Source of the DNA: Candidatus Cloacimonadota bacterium
GTDB taxonomy: Bacteria > Cloacimonadota > Cloacimonadia > JGIOTU-2
Direction: 5' to 3'
Length of the DNA stretch: 47,677 bases
Assembly (NCBI GenBank): GCA_030611765.1
Contig: JAUWPE010000003.1
Coordinates: 1 to 47,677 of the forward strand
This document shows, in pieces, positions 165 through 42,195 of this stretch. Numbering within the stretch: the stretch's first letter is position 1; the number at the start of each line of letters is the position of its first letter. The position numbers were made by a program, and so were the translations under genes. The notes under the pieces were generated by a model, which was given only the letters and a program-made list of their open reading frames with translations, did no database searches and was not told where the DNA came from.

Positions 165-580
165 GCTCACCCCGTTAGATAGTATCCCATCCCGATAAAT
201 CGGGACGGAGCAAGAGTATCTAACAGGGTAAACCTGCCCGGTGAAATAATTTAAAACTATGGTTAGTAACATAAAGTAGTCAACAAAAATAAATTAAATG
301 GGTATAGTCATAGATTATGCCGCTATTTCACGGGGTCAGGTGAAGCGGGGGTTAGTCACTTAATTCTAAAATCCTTGCATTTTTTGGCAAAAGAATTTTT
401 ATCAACTAACTCCATTTGAATAGAAAAAAAGATTCAACGGAGTTCGTTTTGCTTGCCCCGTGAAATGTTTTTTCTTTTATTTCATTGGGGTTCGTTGCTA
501 ATTCTTTGGTTCGGTTTACCCTGTTGGATAGCTATCATGCTGGATTTACCTCGTTAAAATAATTATCCTACAGGGTTTAT
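165..580. repeat. Cluster of nested/adjacent CCCCGTGAAAT...ATTTCACGGGG-type hairpin elements (family E), one carrying an internal ATCCCGATAAATCGGGAC palindrome
   Basis: Inverted arms at 170-181/217-228, 233-248/324-340, 408-421/432-443, 456-466/479-490 and 519-530/564-575; 18-bp palindrome at 189-206. Confidence 0.8.
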
Positions 581-11037: not shown

Positions 11038-11096
11038 ATCTCTGTGTCCTCTGCCTGCCACGTCGAAGTGTAACGGAGACGGGTGCTCTCTGTGGT
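10630..11096. mobile_element. GxxExxY cassette bounded by family A inverted repeats (ACCACAGAGnnCACAGAG)
   Basis: Left arm accaccgagtacactgag at 10630-10647; right arm ctctgtgtcctctg[30 nt]tgctctctgtggt at 11040-11096; sits between tgt and porX. Confidence 0.6.
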
Positions 11097-11143
11097 GGGA
11101 AAGAATGTGTGTAATGGATAAGTTCTGATGAAAGGAATATAGA

Positions 11144-12700
11144 ATGAAAAAAGCAAAGATACTCTGGATAGATGATGAAATACAGATGCTCAAACCGCAT
11201 ATAATATTTCTAGAAGAAAGAAATTTCGAAGTGGTTTCAGCATCCAATGGAAACGACGGTATTGCCCTCGTCGAAGAACAAAATTTTGATATCGTACTTC
11301 TCGATGAGATGATGCCCGGACTCGACGGACTGGAAACTCTTGTGCAGATCAAGAAGCTCAATGAAAGTCTGCCTGTGGTAATGGTTACCAAGAACGAAGA
11401 AGAGGGTTTGATGAACAAAGCGATCGCCCAGCAGATCACAGATTATATCATCAAGCCGATCAATCCCAACCAGATACTGATGTCCCTTAAGAAGATATTG
11501 ATGTCTGAAGAGATCCGCAGAAACCGGACAGGCGAAGAATATGCGGAATTCTCTGCAAAACTCAATCAAAAACTTTTTGCAGAACCGAACTGGCAGGATT
11601 GGATAGATATTTATCGCTCCATTGCAGAGTGGGATCTGAAGCTGGATCAGCTATACTACGAAGATATCATTCAAATGCACTCGTATGAAAAGAAAAATTG
11701 CGATACCGAGTTTTCAAACTACATCGCTGCTCATTATGAAGATTTTCTCACTCAATCCGATAGTCCGGTGCTTTCTCCTGATATTGTAAGAAAATACGCT
11801 GCCGACAGATTGTACACAAAGAAGGTTGTTTATTTTGTTGTTCTCGACTGTCTTCGACTCGATCAATTCATGACAATTAAGCCCTTTATTGAAGAGCTTT
11901 TCAATGTGAAAACCGATTATTATTATTCAATTTTACCCACGTCAACGCCATATTCTCGAAATGCAATTTTCAGCGGTATGATGCCAGGCAAGATAGCGAA
12001 AGTGTACCCACAATTCTGGCGCACCAGCAAAGAAGTGGAAAGCAGTCTTAACCGCGATGAGCACTTTTTCATGGATGAACAGCTCAAGAAAATGGATATT
12101 CCCATGCCACATGGAAGTAAGTATATAAAGGTACTGAATACTGAGGAAGGCGAGTATGTCACAAGAAAGATCCCTTCCTATAAAAAAGAGCGATTGGTCA
12201 TTCTCGTATATAACTTTTTGGACATGCTGCTTCATCACAGATTTAAAGATGAAATACTTCAGGAAATTATACCTAACGACCGCGCATTGCGTTCGTTAAC
12301 AAAGCTGTGGTTTTTGAATTCTCAGTTCTATGAGACACTCAAACTCATTGCAAAACAGGATGCGGTTGTCATACTTACAACTGATCACGGATCGATAAAA
12401 GTCGAGCATCCAACAAAGGTTATCAGCGATAAGGAAATCTCATCCGGATTGCGCTCAAAACACGGCAAGAATATCACCTGTAATGATAGGCATACTATCA
12501 AAGTTTCAGACCCGAAAAGATACGGACTTCCTATTGAAAATGTTGTAGAGAACTACATCTTTGCCAAAGGTGATCATTACTTTGTGTATCCAACTGCTTA
12601 TAATGAGTACAAGCGTAAATTCGACGGCACCTATCAGCACGGCGGTGTTTCCATGGAAGAAATGATCCTGCCGGTATCGATCTTAACAACCAAGAAGTAA
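11144..12700 (+). CDS. porX: PorX-like response regulator with PglZ/alkaline phosphatase domain
   Basis: Receiver ILWIDDE/VLLDEMMPG; LDCLRLDQ, SILPTSTPYSRNAIFSG, TTDHG, YQHGGVSMEEMILP; 518 aa; adjacent to tsaE. Confidence 0.9.
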   Translation: MKKAKILWIDDEIQMLKPHIIFLEERNFEVVSASNGNDGIALVEEQNFDIVLLDEMMPGLDGLETLVQIKKLNESLPVVMVTKNEEEGLMNKAIAQQITDYIIKPINPNQILMSLKKILMSEEIRRNRTGEEYAEFSAKLNQKLFAEPNWQDWIDIYRSIAEWDLKLDQLYYEDIIQMHSYEKKNCDTEFSNYIAAHYEDFLTQSDSPVLSPDIVRKYAADRLYTKKVVYFVVLDCLRLDQFMTIKPFIEELFNVKTDYYYSILPTSTPYSRNAIFSGMMPGKIAKVYPQFWRTSKEVESSLNRDEHFFMDEQLKKMDIPMPHGSKYIKVLNTEEGEYVTRKIPSYKKERLVILVYNFLDMLLHHRFKDEILQEIIPNDRALRSLTKLWFLNSQFYETLKLIAKQDAVVILTTDHGSIKVEHPTKVISDKEISSGLRSKHGKNITCNDRHTIKVSDPKRYGLPIENVVENYIFAKGDHYFVYPTAYNEYKRKFDGTYQHGGVSMEEMILPVSILTTKK

Positions 12701-19684: not shown

Positions 19685-19923
19685 GTGAGACCGTGAAAAT
19701 GAATGCTCTGAAAACATGGAAAAGAAAACTTATGAAAGCAAAAGTGGAATGAAACGTTCGATACTTGAATCGCAGTGAGTGAAACGACCCTGTGAAATAA
19801 AAAAACAGATTTCACCCATGTGTAATAAAAGATATAAGAGATTACACAGGGTAAACGGGTTAAAAGTGTGATTCGAGAATTGCGGATGAGAAAAATGAGA
19901 TGTTTATGTTTAATCATTCTCGC
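19685..19923 (+). ncRNA. Candidate rod-shaped structured ncRNA (6S-like architecture) with nested repeat insert
   Basis: TTGACA at 19645; 5'/3' closing stem (19685-19709 with 19897-19923), A-rich bubble, 11-bp stem 19764-19774/19867-19877; folded by eye only. Confidence 0.35.
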
Positions 19924-26235: not shown

Positions 26236-27145
26236 AATCACGAGTCGGCCACGAAGGGAACGACTCGGGATGGAGTTTCAATCTTTAAACCCGACTCATC
26301 TTTGCAAGCTGAGTCGTGTTTATCATTATTCAAATAATTTCCTGTCTTCCTCATACTTTTCATCTGAATAAACTTCCATCATCTTTGAATATTCCAACGG
26401 TGTTAGATCAAACCAATCCCATACCTCATTGCAAAATAACTTCCCTTTTCGTTTACCAATCCATTCAAGACAATTTGAGTAGATCCAGTCCTCCGGTCTT
26501 TTAACAAGATTTGATTTCACTGGATTGAAATGGATATACAGGCATAATCTGATAAAATATTTTTCTGTTGCTACTATTTTGTGTTGCAAAGGACTTCGAA
26601 ACAATGTTCCTTTTCTGCTATATTTGTGATTGTAATATAAAGTATACCCCGAAAATATATCGTTAAAGATTTTGTATATGGGCACATCACTATCTTGCCG
26701 GATGAAGAAGTGATAGTGATTCGGCATTAAACAATAAGAAAATATCGTTGCGGGATATAATAGTATTTTCTGTTTAAACTTACTGATAACTCTGAGATAG
26801 TCATTTTTTTTACGGAAAAGATTTTGGTGCTCAACCGCGTGATTGTATATATGGAAACAACTTCCTTTAATAAAATTTTCTTTCTTTACTCTCATAATAA
26901 TTACATATTATCATGGAATCACGAGTCGGTCACGAAGGGAACGACTCGGGATGGAGTTTGCGCGATTTCAACCCGACTCATCTTTGCAAGCTGAGTCGTG
27001 TCTCAAAAATATCATGAGACCTCCTGATTATTTTTTCACAAGAGAATTTGAAATTATTTTTCAACGAAATAAACTACGATTTTTGCGTCAAGGAATATGA
27101 TAATCGAGTCACGAGTCGGCCACGAAAGGAACGAATCAGGATGGA
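26236..27145. mobile_element. REPtron-like locus: RAYT flanked by direct-repeat double-hairpin REP modules (family C)
   Basis: ~84-bp modules at 26236-26319 and 26917-27001 (CACGAGTCGG...CGACTCGGG plus CCCGACTCATCTTTGCAAGCTGAGTCGTG); third partial copy at 27109-27145. Confidence 0.85.
26326..26895 (-). CDS. REP-associated tyrosine transposase (RAYT, Y1 HUH)
   Basis: FHIYNH, YCLMPNHYH (HUH), YYNHKYSRKGTLF, YIHFNPVK, PEDWIYS. Confidence 0.93.
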   Translation of the reverse strand: MRVKKENFIKGSCFHIYNHAVEHQNLFRKKNDYLRVISKFKQKILLYPATIFSYCLMPNHYHFFIRQDSDVPIYKIFNDIFSGYTLYYNHKYSRKGTLFRSPLQHKIVATEKYFIRLCLYIHFNPVKSNLVKRPEDWIYSNCLEWIGKRKGKLFCNEVWDWFDLTPLEYSKMMEVYSDEKYEEDRKLFE

Positions 27146-35900: not shown

Positions 35901-36203
35901 ATGTACCTTGCGGACTTTTCCGTTCTTTTTGTAGATATTGCTGATCTCAGCAGTAAGAATGAAGCGTGTTTGATTATGAAAATTGTATTTTTTAAATTCC
36001 TTTTTAAGTGTGAAAAGACCGGGCTCGGCAGGTTCGAGTTTTTCTTTCAGTTCCTTAAGCCATCCCGGATGAGAAAAATCTCCTGTCCCAACAACAGTGA
36101 TACCTTTTTTCTGCGCCCATTTGTCGAGTTCTTCGGGAATGAGACTTTTACTGGTGGCAATTGAAAAATGCGAGTGAATATGGAAATCGGCAATAAATTT
36201 CAT
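32982..36203 (-). CDS. EndoQ/PHP-type nuclease fused to a UvrD/PcrA helicase
   Basis: DFHIHSHFS, GTGDFSHP, PAHIWTPW, SNSDAHS, CGIC...CPVC; AGPGTGKT, AVTFTNKA, IDEFQD, GDPNQAIYGFRGA, TLHSAKGLEF, EERRLFYVGMTRA. Confidence 0.93.
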   Translation of the reverse strand: MKFIADFHIHSHFSIATSKSLIPEELDKWAQKKGITVVGTGDFSHPGWLKELKEKLEPAEPGLFTLKKEFKKYNFHNQTRFILTAEISNIYKKNGKVRKVHNVLFAPDFETVEKIQNKLSQIGNITSDGRPILGLDSRDLFEIVLESSDDSFLVPAHIWTPWFSALGSKSGFDTIEECYDDLSEHIFAVETGLSSDPPMNWVCSFLDKYTLISNSDAHSPSKLGREANFFDTELSYHAIRDAMKFGNDEQFLGTVEFFPQEGKYHFDGHRKCGICWDPVETLKHKGICPVCGKKVTVGVLNRVAQLADRSDPKARPHRDKFHSLITLDEILSEILGVGKNSKKVAQAYEALLQKFTSEFDILLHTPLDDLQKKTNEILTEAIRRMRNGQVHIEEGFDGEYGIIRVFTKDEIKDMQNQEALFSDFTEEIKAPPPKPLINFDIASFKKLYTKETEPELFIVKEKKTAVEQTPSDFLEELNENQKLAVQHYPGTLLILAGPGTGKTRTLTARIAYLIKQRGIKPANILAVTFTNKASEEMKERLDKILDTISKEELQISTFHSYGYSILKEHASYFNRDSQFSILDETEKQRFLIEKVGCNKKKVKSLYEEISHIKQQAISRSKIRKKATKELFAKYEKALRQFNLFDIEDLIYKPVMLLKNEQKIQKKYQKKIQFILIDEFQDINAAQYQLIKLIKPEKQANITAIGDPNQAIYGFRGADVGLIQKFQKDYTQTTIIPLLQSYRCTNTILRASHQVIEEQEILSGLQEGVKINISSHATDKSEAEFIAREIEKLIGGVRFFSMDSSITDGSEGSKVGSLSEVAILCRLKAQMPVLEKALNDHSIPYQKVTENSFFFEEPVKSVLDVLRLALNPRNMFLIDELIKRNILTIPDLNELKTCLIENNVQQALEMIIARFFKGQISQLDESIKKLINCTEKFDNDFDAFLKFAILGSGVDTNDFTLERVNLLTLHSAKGLEFDCVFIAGCEDGILPYSLFENKKCNIDEERRLFYVGMTRARNLLYLTGAQSRFIYGKTCNFPQSSYIKSIEQELLEEKKIEYKKKKKPSHPQSQQELF

Positions 36204-36299
36204 GGTTTATTATAGGTCTTTCTAATTTTAAGTGGGTTGAAATATTGAAATAAACGAATCTGAATTTCCAATATCCAACACGGAATAACCAATATCCAT

Positions 36300-36600
36300 T
36301 TAACTACACTCTCTCTTAACTCTTTTAAAGTTGCTTTCAATTTATTTATACTGTTAGATATTTCGCTTAACATATTGTTTTCCATTATTGTATTAATTGT
36401 CTAACGGAGTAAATAAAATCAGACCTAAATTCAGTATTTTGAGCTTCTCCATAATTCGCTGTAGGTGATGATCCGCTTTTCAGTATTTGAAATATGGTAT
36501 GTTTAACTGCCTTTGTTTCGGGTAGTTGCGCATAAACATGAATAATCTTAACCGAATAATCAATCAGACGTTCCTGCAAATCGAACTTTTTATGAATCAT
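36300..36600 (-). pseudogene. Four-helix-bundle (23S rRNA IVS-like) protein, interrupted and truncated
   Basis: DLQERLIDYSVKII...QILKSGSSPTANYGEAQ...DFI; removing 36345-36409 restores DFIYKLKATLKELRES. Confidence 0.85.
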
Positions 36601-36724
36601 TTTCTTTATTCTTTTCCTTCATTAATTGGATATTCCGTGCCTGCCGAGCCATAGCCTAAGCGACGGCTGGTTGAATATTAGATATTGTTTGCAACTTACC
36701 AACTCAATGCTCAAAAGATCCTTA

Positions 36725-37834
36725 TTATGTCGCAGTTCTGAAGAGTCCGATCAAGCCGATAGTTCCAAAGATAATATTTGCAAACCACGCAGCCATAACC
36801 GGTGAAAGCAGTTCATTGTAGCCGAGACTTTGTCCGAATCTGACCATTGAAATGTATAAAAAACAGATTGCAATTGCTACCACAAAGCCGATTCCCCGGG
36901 ATTTTCCTCTTTTTGAAATCGTGGCAAGTGGAATGCAGAACAGGATCATTATCACATTCACAAAAGGATATGCTATCTTCAGATTCATTTCCACCAGCTC
37001 TTTTTGATGTTTCTCACCAATTCTTCGTAAACGTTCAATATAATCCCGTAACTCGAATACAGTCATCTCATCAGGTTTTTTTGTGCTTTTTACCAGATCT
37101 TCGGGCTGTATGTGAATATCATCAAAATACTGTTCCTCAAAATTAATATATGAAACGAGTTTATTATCCTCGAATTCTCGAATGTAGCCATTATAAAAAG
37201 TTAGCTTCATATCTTGATCATCATTCTTGGTTTCTGTGTCCCAGAGTCCGTGTTCCGCATGTATCTTTTTCACAATATGACTGTCATTATTAAAGATAGA
37301 GATGTCTATATTCTTGATCTTGTTTTTGTAGCCATCAAGAAATCCGATATAGTACAAACGGTTCTTATCATCCTTATATTGAATGTCAGACCGGACCCTG
37401 ATGTCGGCTCTATTCTGTTTTTTTATCTTTACTCTTTCGATGTACACGAGTGTATCTTCTGCCCACGGCATGACTGTATCACCGAAAACAAATAAAAGTA
37501 TCGTGATAAGAAATCCAAAGGCAAAAAGAGGAACGGACATCCTTTTTATGCTTATGCCTGCGCTGCGAATTGCGACTGTTTCGTTGTGCTTGCTCATGTA
37601 TTGCATAAGGAAGAGTCCTGCAAGAAGGATCGCTACAGGAGATGAGAGCACCATAATATAGGGAATCCTGCAGAGGAAATAGAAAACCACATCCCAGAAT
37701 GCCGGATTCTCACTAAAAAACCTGCTCCATTTTTCAAAGAATTCAATAACCAGAAAAATTGCTGTGAAAGAACTTAGAATGATCATGTAGAGACGGGCAA
37801 AGCTTTTAAAGAGGTATTTATCAATTATTTTCAT
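36725..37834 (-). CDS. lptG: LPS export permease LptG
   Basis: MKIIDKYL, MSKHNETVAIRSAGIS, PDEMTVFEL, PVMAAWFANIIF. Confidence 0.9.
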   Translation of the reverse strand: MKIIDKYLFKSFARLYMIILSSFTAIFLVIEFFEKWSRFFSENPAFWDVVFYFLCRIPYIMVLSSPVAILLAGLFLMQYMSKHNETVAIRSAGISIKRMSVPLFAFGFLITILLFVFGDTVMPWAEDTLVYIERVKIKKQNRADIRVRSDIQYKDDKNRLYYIGFLDGYKNKIKNIDISIFNNDSHIVKKIHAEHGLWDTETKNDDQDMKLTFYNGYIREFEDNKLVSYINFEEQYFDDIHIQPEDLVKSTKKPDEMTVFELRDYIERLRRIGEKHQKELVEMNLKIAYPFVNVIMILFCIPLATISKRGKSRGIGFVVAIAICFLYISMVRFGQSLGYNELLSPVMAAWFANIIFGTIGLIGLFRTAT

Positions 37835-39224: not shown

Positions 39225-39810
39225 ACCACGAAAAACACGAAAAAACACGAAAAAATAAATTTAAACAACCACAGAGGGCACAGAGAAACACAGAGATAAA
39301 AATAACCGAGAAGAAAAGCGAAGAGAGAAGAGCGAGGAAAGAATAAAAATCACGATCCGTCTTCATATCAACTATCGGGACGACGCTGTGGCAAGCCAGT
39401 CTTAGTTTCACTACTCTGTGATAAAACGGCGTAACATGCAGGTAGAGGAATTTTCGACTTGTGACAAGATAATTCCAAATAAAAAAGGGCATGTCATTCC
39501 CGTGAAAACGGGAATCCAGTTTATTAATAACAGCACGCAGATAAACGCAGATTGGGCAGATTTTGGCAGATATATATTGAATATTTTTAACCACAGAGAG
39601 CACAGAGAACACAGAGGAATTATCAAGTTAAAATTTTAAATATAATCAGTATTCCTTCTTTGCAGGATTTCACGGGGTAAATCAGTTTCATCAGCGTTAA
39701 TCTGTGTTCTATTCTTTTCAGATCCCCGAGTCATTCCCTTCGTGGCTGACTCGTGAAACGCAACACATGTTTATCAGCTTCATCAGCGTTTATCTGCGTT
39801 CTATTCTCTA
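39225..39810. repeat. Dense repeat mosaic between divergent lptF and the beta-helix gene
   Basis: Family A at 39225, 39268 and 39590; GTCATTCCCGTGAAAACGGGAATCCAG at 39493; family B at 39532-39571 and 39680-39803; family C at 39725-39756. Confidence 0.85.
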
Positions 39811-41885: not shown

Positions 41886-42195
41886 CACGACTCAGCTTGC
41901 AAAGATGAGTCGGGGCGAAATGGGACGTAGATATACGCAGATTCAGCGGATTTTCGCAGATAAAGAATTAAATTTATTTTTCATCATTATATTTTCTGAA
42001 TCAGTGTTCATCCTGTGAAATAATCCCGATGCATCGGGATTCCTGCTTTGCAGGATTTCACGGGGTAAATCAGTTTCCTCAGCGTTAATCTGTGTTCTAT
42101 TCTTTTCAGATCCCCGAGTCATTCCCTTCGTGGCTGACTCGTGAAACGCAACACATGTTTATCAGCCTCATCTGCGATTATCTGCGTTCTATTCT
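41886..42195. repeat. Repeat mosaic including a 157-bp direct repeat of 39651-39807
   Basis: Family C at 41886-41914, family B at 41925-41961, nested element at 42011-42069, direct repeat at 42039-42195. Confidence 0.9.

Follow-up and report, generated by a model that had tools for sequence, protein, structure and literature searches.

A 65-nucleotide insertion in a Candidatus Cloacimonadota pseudogene is a dead miniature of a cross-phylum GIY-YIG hairpin element

The stretch of DNA analysed here, referred to as the window, comprises positions 1 to 47,677 (47,677 nucleotides) of contig JAUWPE010000003.1 from a Candidatus Cloacimonadota bacterium (assembly GCA_030611765.1, genome G000). At the locus of interest a 65-nt unit belonging to a repeat family designated E splits a gene for a four-helix-bundle protein, and the split gene is carried by a larger cassette of about 570 bp. 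The arrangement is as follows, with the basis of each assignment in brackets.

36204..36773, no strand assigned: cassette with the four-helix-bundle pseudogene, inverted repeats of CCAATATCCAACACGGAATATCCAA type at its ends, multi-copy in the genome (paralogues with the same repeats; contig joints)
36414..36600, minus strand: split four-helix-bundle gene, N-terminal part (homologue comparison)
36410..36413, minus strand: left-flank tetranucleotide TTTA, host-gene sequence (ATT CAT or ATT TAT at this place in intact homologues)
36345..36409, minus strand: family E / GIY-YIG hairpin element, a decayed gene-less copy (MITE) of the TTAGAT arm subfamily (paralogue comparison; DNA fold)
36290..36344, start approximate, minus strand: split four-helix-bundle gene, C-terminal remnant (KLKATLKELRES...) (homologue comparison)

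Read on the minus strand from 36409 to 36345, the 65-nt unit has the arms CCGTTAGA and TCTAACAG, follows TTTA and ends in TAAA (36348-36345), in agreement with the coordinates and strand given in the original prediction. The listed open reading frame 36385-36600 (minus strand) enters the element and terminates inside it, and excision of the 65 nt in silico fuses ...DFIY in frame to KLKATLKELRES (locus L042). That removal restores the frame, as had been proposed, is confirmed by homologues that read across the site. With the N-terminal part of the four-helix-bundle protein as query we searched 23 genomes, 13 of which gave matches, and read 24 loci; 18 of these cross the site uninterrupted in open reading frames of 99–129 residues, and three are interrupted elsewhere. 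The junction reads DFIHKLK, DFIHKMK or DFIHKIK in 16 of the 18 uninterrupted loci, DFIHILK in one and DFIYKLK in one, the junction DNA of this last locus (L048, genome G008) being exactly as removal of the unit predicts. A plus-strand reading, placing the unit at 36349-36413 after TTTA (from TTCA), had its initial basis in paralogues that show TTCA/CCC...GGGGTAAA/ on that strand (slashes mark element boundaries here and below); it needs two changes relative to the intact homologues, against none or one for the minus-strand reading, and was dropped on these grounds.

Intact homologues extend further (...EVWLKIIVKAKLIQPSTKL...) and the gene in the window is without its last ~45 codons, so that, with the element insertion added to the missing C-terminal part, the gene is dead twice over. 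G009 has the same insertion twice (the N-terminal parts being 95% and 88% identical), and it recurs in G012 and in paralogues within G000; it is thus old and has multiplied together with its host cassette; the N-terminal query gives 10 matches in G000 and 16 in G009. The window copy landed after TTTA in the four-helix-bundle gene ahead of both the multiplication of the cassette and the divergence of G000 from G009. Sequence from the window, in whole or in part, is contained in 22 public runs, and over half of it in four cold-seep runs, in all cases as assembled contigs. In contigs of runs X5 and X16, which stem from a relative about 92% identical, position 36203 is joined to 36774 with 54 other letters between them; the whole of 36204-36773 is absent at this spot from the relative's contigs, and the four-helix-bundle cassette is therefore itself an insertion. 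None of the 15 of 33 joints listed for contigs of four public runs skips a family E copy only, and neither an excision product nor a circle junction was seen among them. Three paralogues in G000 (on C131, C148 and C99) carry a second palindrome (GGTTACCAAG...CTTGGTAACC) further upstream in the four-helix-bundle gene, which recalls the repeats beside the RAYT-like genes of C52 and C161.

The window copy has degenerated at both ends, its 5′ end reading CTCC versus CCCC in paralogues and its 3′ end AGTA-TAAA versus GGGG-TAAA. Folded as single-stranded DNA, 36345-36409 gives −2.8 kcal/mol, no better than shuffled sequences (z −0.03). The unit is a decayed relic that has since lost its pairing. The further members of family E in the window, with their fold z-scores or the end pattern on which the assignment rests, are these.

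170..232, plus strand: 63-nt copy, TTAGAT arms, after CTCA, TAAA end (fold z −4.3)
515..575, minus strand: 61-nt copy, TAGGAT/TCCAAC arms, after TAAA, TAAA end; absent from the original prediction (end pattern)
19815..19855, plus strand: 41-nt copy, TGTAAT arms, after TTCA (fold z −4.8)
39667..39681, plus strand: right end only (ATTTCACGGGGTAAA), TGAAAT type, with no matching left arm within 260 nt (end pattern)
42011..42069, plus strand: 59-nt copy, TGAAAT arms, after TTCA, TAAA end (fold z −6.5)

The sites at 170-232 (CTCA), 19815-19855 (TTCA) and 42011-42069 (TTCA) are as they had been described. The last of these interrupts a host repeat whose uninterrupted paralogues read CAGTGTT(C/A)ATCAG (C82, C50, C69, C189) or GTGTTTATCAG (C69, C98), and its loop contains two small hairpins. 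The copy at 19815-19855 lies within a TGAAAT-type hairpin starting at 19788, whose right arm, ATTTCA/CGGG, it splits, and the composite of this copy and its host hairpin is found in five places (C87 twice, C94, C98 and C108). The loops at 190-208 and 42027-42044 hold a small hairpin, CCCGAT(N3-4)ATCGGG, like the stem of an SRM-type hairpin (see below) near a GIY-YIG gene on C189, which suggests repeats nested in repeats. Immediately behind the copy at 170-232 comes, at 233-345, another and longer hairpin; its arms are of TGAAAT type (CCCGGTGAAATA ... TATTTCACGGGG), and its flanks, CCTG and TCAG, are non-canonical.

The general plan N4/CCCYGT...ACRGGG-TAAA/ is found in the three other copies originally named and in about 50–70 genome copies. 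In the 2.23-Mb genome, which comprises 189 contigs, the end pattern ATNNNACRGGGTAAA has 54 matches and none for the reversed control, more than chance would give; a hairpin followed by GGTAAA has 46 matches, against 2–19 for eight other tails, and a looser pattern yields 71 right ends, 42 of them with a clear left arm within 260 nt. Five arm subfamilies can be told apart, differing at arm positions 4, 7 and 9. The four copies originally named belong to three of them (TTAGAT, TGTAAT and TGAAAT), and the conservation ascribed to their arms holds for CCCYGT/ACRGGG plus AT and for nothing beyond this.

Three long copies with family E arms occur in G000, of 276 bp and 286 bp (C157) and of 285 bp (C88), and all three contain an open reading frame of 83–87 residues for a GIY-YIG protein. 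PF01541 covers nearly the whole of this protein (E 5e-16 to 8e-21 for the three copies), and the domain search gave no second domain; TIGR01453, the group I intron endonuclease model, scores 22–24 bits versus a cut-off of 56, the only sequence matches in the PDB are the UPF0213 proteins 1zg2 and 1ywl, and 11 relatives all keep the Y, G, R, H and E columns unchanged. The full form of the element measures 276–300 bp and comprises one terminal inverted repeat of 12–16 bp (CCCYGTnnnAT ... ATnnnACRGGG), a 4-nt 3′ tail (TAAA, less often TGAA) and the GIY-YIG gene, and the gene-less copies of 36–150 nt retain arms and tail only. For three of the five subfamilies of gene-less copies a gene-bearing copy with the same arms is present in G000. 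The 120-nt copy on C26 has kept the first ~25 codons of the GIY-YIG gene, as would be expected of an internal-deletion derivative. The gene-bearing copies each split a gene of their own, one AlbA_2-like, one of HepT type and one encoding another four-helix-bundle protein. The HepT-type gene, split in G000 by the 285-bp copy, is intact in G009 (95% identity) and G004 (89%), which dates this insertion to after the separation of these species.

The right arm and tail code for Y-L-T-G-stop, the last codons of the GIY-YIG gene, and in our reading the variable arm positions are synonymous positions of the Leu and Thr codons, with the non-coding left arm changing in step. Among 52 distinct arm pairs, 94.7% of cells are paired, compared to 80.7% (maximum 83.7%) in 500 partner shuffles, with double changes preserving the pairing at arm positions 4, 7 and 9, and RNAalifold reports compensatory double changes in 5 of the 12 terminal pairs. 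Arm complementarity is under selection. Since the inverted repeats of ordinary double-strand transposons also covary, this covariation is no proof of a single-strand hairpin. A three-armed fold for the entire unit was not reproduced: from 55 units, one of them wrongly cut, RNAalifold predicted the 12-pair terminal stem only, which does not prove that such a fold is absent.

The gene-bearing form is widespread. Among 61 related genomes, close homologues of the nuclease (56–74% identical) have the same kind of arms and distant small GIY-YIG genes have other flanks. In a species-representative collection we confirmed at least 595 relatives and read the arms of the best 80 of these, which are 64–78% identical, stem from more than ten phyla (Cloacimonadales, Bacteroidota, Ignavibacteria, Patescibacteria, Planctomycetota, Acidobacteriota, Nitrospirota and others are represented) and have matching arms around the GIY-YIG gene in 75 of the 80 loci, in units of mostly 275–300 bp. 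The end pattern is abundant only in relatives from family f1 (171 matches in G012, 79 in G017, 71 in G019, 54 in G015 and 33 in G009), with at most two matches in each of the 20 genomes searched from family f6. Co-occurrence of pattern and gene is imperfect: G005, G007 and G020 (89, 93 and 59% complete) have 12–29 end patterns and no close homologue was found in them, and G013 and G052 have close homologues and 0–1 end patterns. Phage and plasmid records gave no tblastn match at E ≤ 1e-8. Class-level relatives (L026, L031 and L035) have GIY-YIG genes between 20–22-bp inverted repeats of unrelated sequence, and a third small GIY-YIG type of 79–85 residues is found in G000 with yet other flanking repeats (C97:1636-1851, plus strand, and C136:13872-14048, plus strand).

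The insertion point of family E copies is directly 3′ of a tetranucleotide, which is TTCA more often than any other, and both genes and other repeats are interrupted in this way. Because many of the 42 copies with two clear arms sit in larger repeats that multiplied as wholes, these copies reduce to 27 flank clusters, in which the left tetranucleotide is TTCA in 11 (background frequency 0.85%), TTAA in three, TTTA, TAAA and CATC in two each, and ACGA, GCGA, TCAC, CGTT, CTCA, CTTA and CTTG in one each. A tetranucleotide preference is thus real, and the target is looser than the YTYA originally put forward. In-genome empty sites, that is, uninterrupted flank paralogues, exist for 11 of the 42 copies. 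The left tetranucleotide equals that of the empty site exactly at five sites (CATC, CGTT, CATT and TTAA twice), and at two more there is one mismatch (TTCA versus TTTA or TTAA). TAAA is in none of the in-genome empty sites. It follows that TAAA travels with the element and that nothing is duplicated, as had been claimed, the net gain being the hairpin plus 4 nt. These sites also bear on double-strand cut-and-paste by a DDE-type transposase acting on terminal inverted repeats. piggyBac targets TTAA and has ends CCC...GGG, and the TTNA/TNAA flanks of family E could be taken for a degenerate TTAA duplication of this kind, to which the likeness TT(C/A/T)A-CCC...GGG-T(A/G)AA (a superficial one) and the net gain of hairpin plus 4 nt would lend themselves; the right-hand TAAA, however, never copies the tetranucleotide of the empty site at the five exact sites, the 276–300-bp unit has no transposase gene inside it, and we regard this explanation as very improbable indeed.

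Two further models of target use were considered and rejected. That both tetranucleotides are element-borne and replace four target bases does fit the HepT, AlbA_2 and four-helix sites but fails at the five sites where a left tetranucleotide other than TTCA equals the empty site. That the TAAA tail guides the element to its target by base pairing would call for the complement TTTA, which is rare (2 of 27 clusters) where TTCA dominates, so that simple tail-target pairing is not supported. At the HepT site, G000 (C88:5539-5823) reads TTCA/element/A, versus CAATG in the intact orthologues (G009 C42, G004 C335), so that within a 95%-identical gene five bases have changed precisely at the junction; for the AlbA_2-like site, a homologue with 58% identity favours TAAA over TTCA as native sequence. 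Left tetranucleotide and tail pair up in 80 loci as (TTCA,TAAA) 26 times and (TTTA,TGAA) 16 times, the fully complementary pairs (TTTA,TAAA) and (TTCA,TGAA) accounting for 6 and 1, and the left side is variable for 28 of 45 TAAA tails in G000 versus 5 of 22 TGAA tails. The tetranucleotide that moves along with the element is therefore not the same throughout, and none of the models considered accounts for this cleanly. Gene-bearing copies with TGTAAT arms are found at the SNIA/EG codons of four-helix-bundle genes in three genomes (G000 C157 at about 11045-11330, minus strand; L011; L014), flanked by CCTG and T/CAAG, or by CGAG in L011. Judged by reading frames only, the apparent gain with this subfamily is 2 + 3 bases and not 0 + 4, and SNIA/EG may be a preferred landing site in the four-helix-bundle gene family.

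Elements of the IS200/IS605 family insert 3′ of a short specific sequence, have a defined 3′ end, make no target duplication and depend on DNA hairpins; for IS608 the target is TTAC and the right end TCAA. The original prediction had likened family E to this family, and the likeness holds for the insertion grammar (tetranucleotide 5′, TAAA 3′, no duplication), which family E has in common with IS608, ISDra2 and their PATE derivatives. For an HUH/Y1 enzyme there is no such support. Y1-like genes are unusually numerous in the genome, which has 17 Y1_Tnp matches in 2.2 Mb from which 16 open frames were extracted, and this richness, together with the shared grammar, speaks for family E being a non-autonomous, PATE-like IS200/IS605-type element that a Y1 HUH transposase mobilises in trans by single-strand peel-and-paste, with the GIY-YIG gene as mere cargo. 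Yet the Y1 transposase expected between family E arms was not found, none of the 16 open frames having such arms in the 350 nt on either side. Most of the 16 frames are RAYT-like (180–220 residues), and most lie between different, REP-like palindromes of their own, including that of the window at 26326-26895 (minus strand), which is flanked by family B hairpins (CACGACTCAGC...GAGTCG type). No TnpB match was found in the genome, and the only gene found between family E arms is the small GIY-YIG nuclease. In structure, too, family E departs from IS200/IS605, one terminal inverted repeat closing the whole unit in place of distinct left and right subterminal hairpins. Finally, three of five other unit-carrying genomes searched have no Y1_Tnp match, among them a 0.6-Mb genome in a single record with 11 end-pattern matches; in the two such genomes G061 and G064 there are 11 and 9 end-pattern matches (controls 0 and 1) and 4 and 5 GIY-YIG matches. 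Action of Y1 in trans is thus unlikely, with the proviso that the incomplete genomes among these are no proof of absence. Assignment of an HUH/Y1 enzyme is not supported, the enzyme of family E is probably a different one, and we consider the Y1 explanation as a whole improbable. REP/REPIN sequences with their RAYT genes resemble family E in being short palindromic repeats in tens of copies, but family E flanks no RAYT-like gene, is often intragenic and has its own nuclease gene.

The closest published system is that of the Ssn nucleases, SsnA of Neisseria meningitidis and its homologues (Chenal et al. 2025, PMC11893778). According to the available text of that paper, Ssn is a single-domain GIY-YIG protein of ~94 residues that cuts only single-stranded DNA beside its own NTS/SRM hairpins, the repeats flank the ssn gene and are scattered genome-wide, and the nucleases modulate transformation; the authors note that the arrangement resembles an insertion sequence, and mobility is put forward there as a hypothesis only. 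In the same text the SRM motif is given as HGTCWY N0-2 YYVSBRH N0-5 WNVSBRG N0-2 RNCYNB, membership is defined by the cd10448 clade or by E < 1e-10 against SsnA of N. meningitidis, and in the genome table the row for Candidatus Cloacimonas acidaminovorans ends in four columns that all read NO (PMC11893778). Family E has in common with this system, as described in the available text, a single-domain GIY-YIG protein (83–87 versus ~90 residues), hairpin-forming repeats on both sides of the gene and many genomic copies. The two differ in that Ssn genes have two self-contained hairpins, whereas the family E arms are halves of one long-range inverted repeat of which the right arm is coding, and the exact junctions, interrupted genes and gene-less miniature copies of family E are without counterpart in what is available of the Ssn account. 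The 12 genome matches of the SRM motif overlap none of the 42 family E copies, and around the three family E genes there is none up to a distance of 300 nt. Two other GIY-YIG genes, on C32 and C189, have one match each next to them; they adjoin SRM-type hairpins (TGTCATTCC...GGGAATCCAG), and identity of their products with the family E protein is no more than about 32%. This second GIY-YIG type has 101 residues (C32:10079-10303, minus strand; C189:8502-8720, minus strand) and one of its copies is broken by TAA. The C32 gene and the broken C189 gene look like a canonical Ssn-type pair. A hairpin fitting the SRM motif is also present in the window at about 39491-39519, where contig depth is above 1000.

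The Ssn precedent opens another explanation for family E, namely a housekeeping module in which a hairpin-directed single-strand nuclease serves the host, for instance by restricting incoming single-stranded DNA, and the hairpins are its binding sites, spread by routes such as recombination, copying linked to repair or transport within other repeats. Ssn cutting beside its own repeats, its effect on transformation and the purely hypothetical status of its mobility in the available text (PMC11893778) all suit such a module, as does the location of many G000 copies inside larger repeats multiplied wholesale (42 copies, 27 flank clusters). Against it, gene-bearing copies split unrelated protein genes at exact junctions while close orthologues are intact, precise empty sites exist, units whose nucleases are 64–78% identical (best 80 of at least 595) occur in more than ten phyla, and binding sites for a host factor are not expected within coding sequences. 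We therefore hold the housekeeping explanation to be unlikely, though it is the strongest of the rivals.

Two other comparisons were made. I-TevI and the Seg proteins represent the free-standing and intron-encoded GIY-YIG homing endonucleases and, like family E, present a selfish GIY-YIG nuclease gene that interrupts genes; they have a DNA-binding domain, however, for which the family E protein, with 84 residues in all, has no counterpart, and homing to a cognate allele does not explain an inverted-repeat-bounded unit at many unrelated sites with gene-less miniatures. Integron attC sites have core and inverse-core sites, and the GTTAGAT / ATCTAAC boxes of family E resemble these, but their order is reversed and the units are scattered in genes rather than in arrays; attC was set aside as a candidate. 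A literature search, with PDF and bioRxiv supplements outside its reach, found, beyond the Ssn paper, no account of a GIY-YIG element whose ends are inverted repeats, and the available passages of the 2006 GIY-YIG phylogenomics paper have no bearing on such an element. Judged by this search, the mobility of family E appears not yet to have been described in print.

The account we favour, reasonably probable though by no means certain, is that of a mobile element of ~280 bp with a GIY-YIG gene, whose nuclease cuts and whose host joins, and of which the 65-nt unit would be a non-autonomous copy now decayed. In this proposal the two arms would pair while the DNA is single-stranded, so that the element's ends meet, and the element's own nuclease, acting as Ssn does beside its hairpins, would cut once at the 5′ foot and once four bases beyond the 3′ foot, after which host ligase or polymerase functions would complete the joining. 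Nucleases of the GIY-YIG superfamily act by hydrolysis and form no covalent intermediate, and host functions would for this reason be needed for joining; a nuclease alone cannot join DNA, and it is in the joining that the account is weakest.

The unit in the window is, in sum, a dead miniature of a cross-phylum GIY-YIG hairpin element that is like the Ssn/SRM modules yet distinct from them. For annotation this means that units of this kind split real genes (four-helix-bundle, HepT-type and AlbA_2-type) and should be masked before pseudogenes or novel short open reading frames are called. The Ssn paper, in its available text, provides the cutting half of the story in vitro (PMC11893778), and the junctions, empty sites and interrupted genes reported here provide the genomic half, with the arms and the TTCA and TAAA sites offering concrete substrates for a direct test. 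Transposition is thought to require an enzyme that both cuts and joins, the accepted transposase classes being DDE, DEDD, HUH, serine, tyrosine and Cas1, and a hydrolytic nuclease of ~84 residues alone would need another route, such as host ligation or copy-in synthesis. We put forward tentatively, at somewhat short of an even chance, that the 84-residue GIY-YIG nuclease itself mobilises a hairpin-closed single-strand DNA transposon of ~280 bp and so represents a new transposase class, with miniature derivatives, a TTCA / TAAA cleavage grammar and a distribution over more than ten phyla. If true, the family E elements would be among the smallest autonomous mobile elements known.
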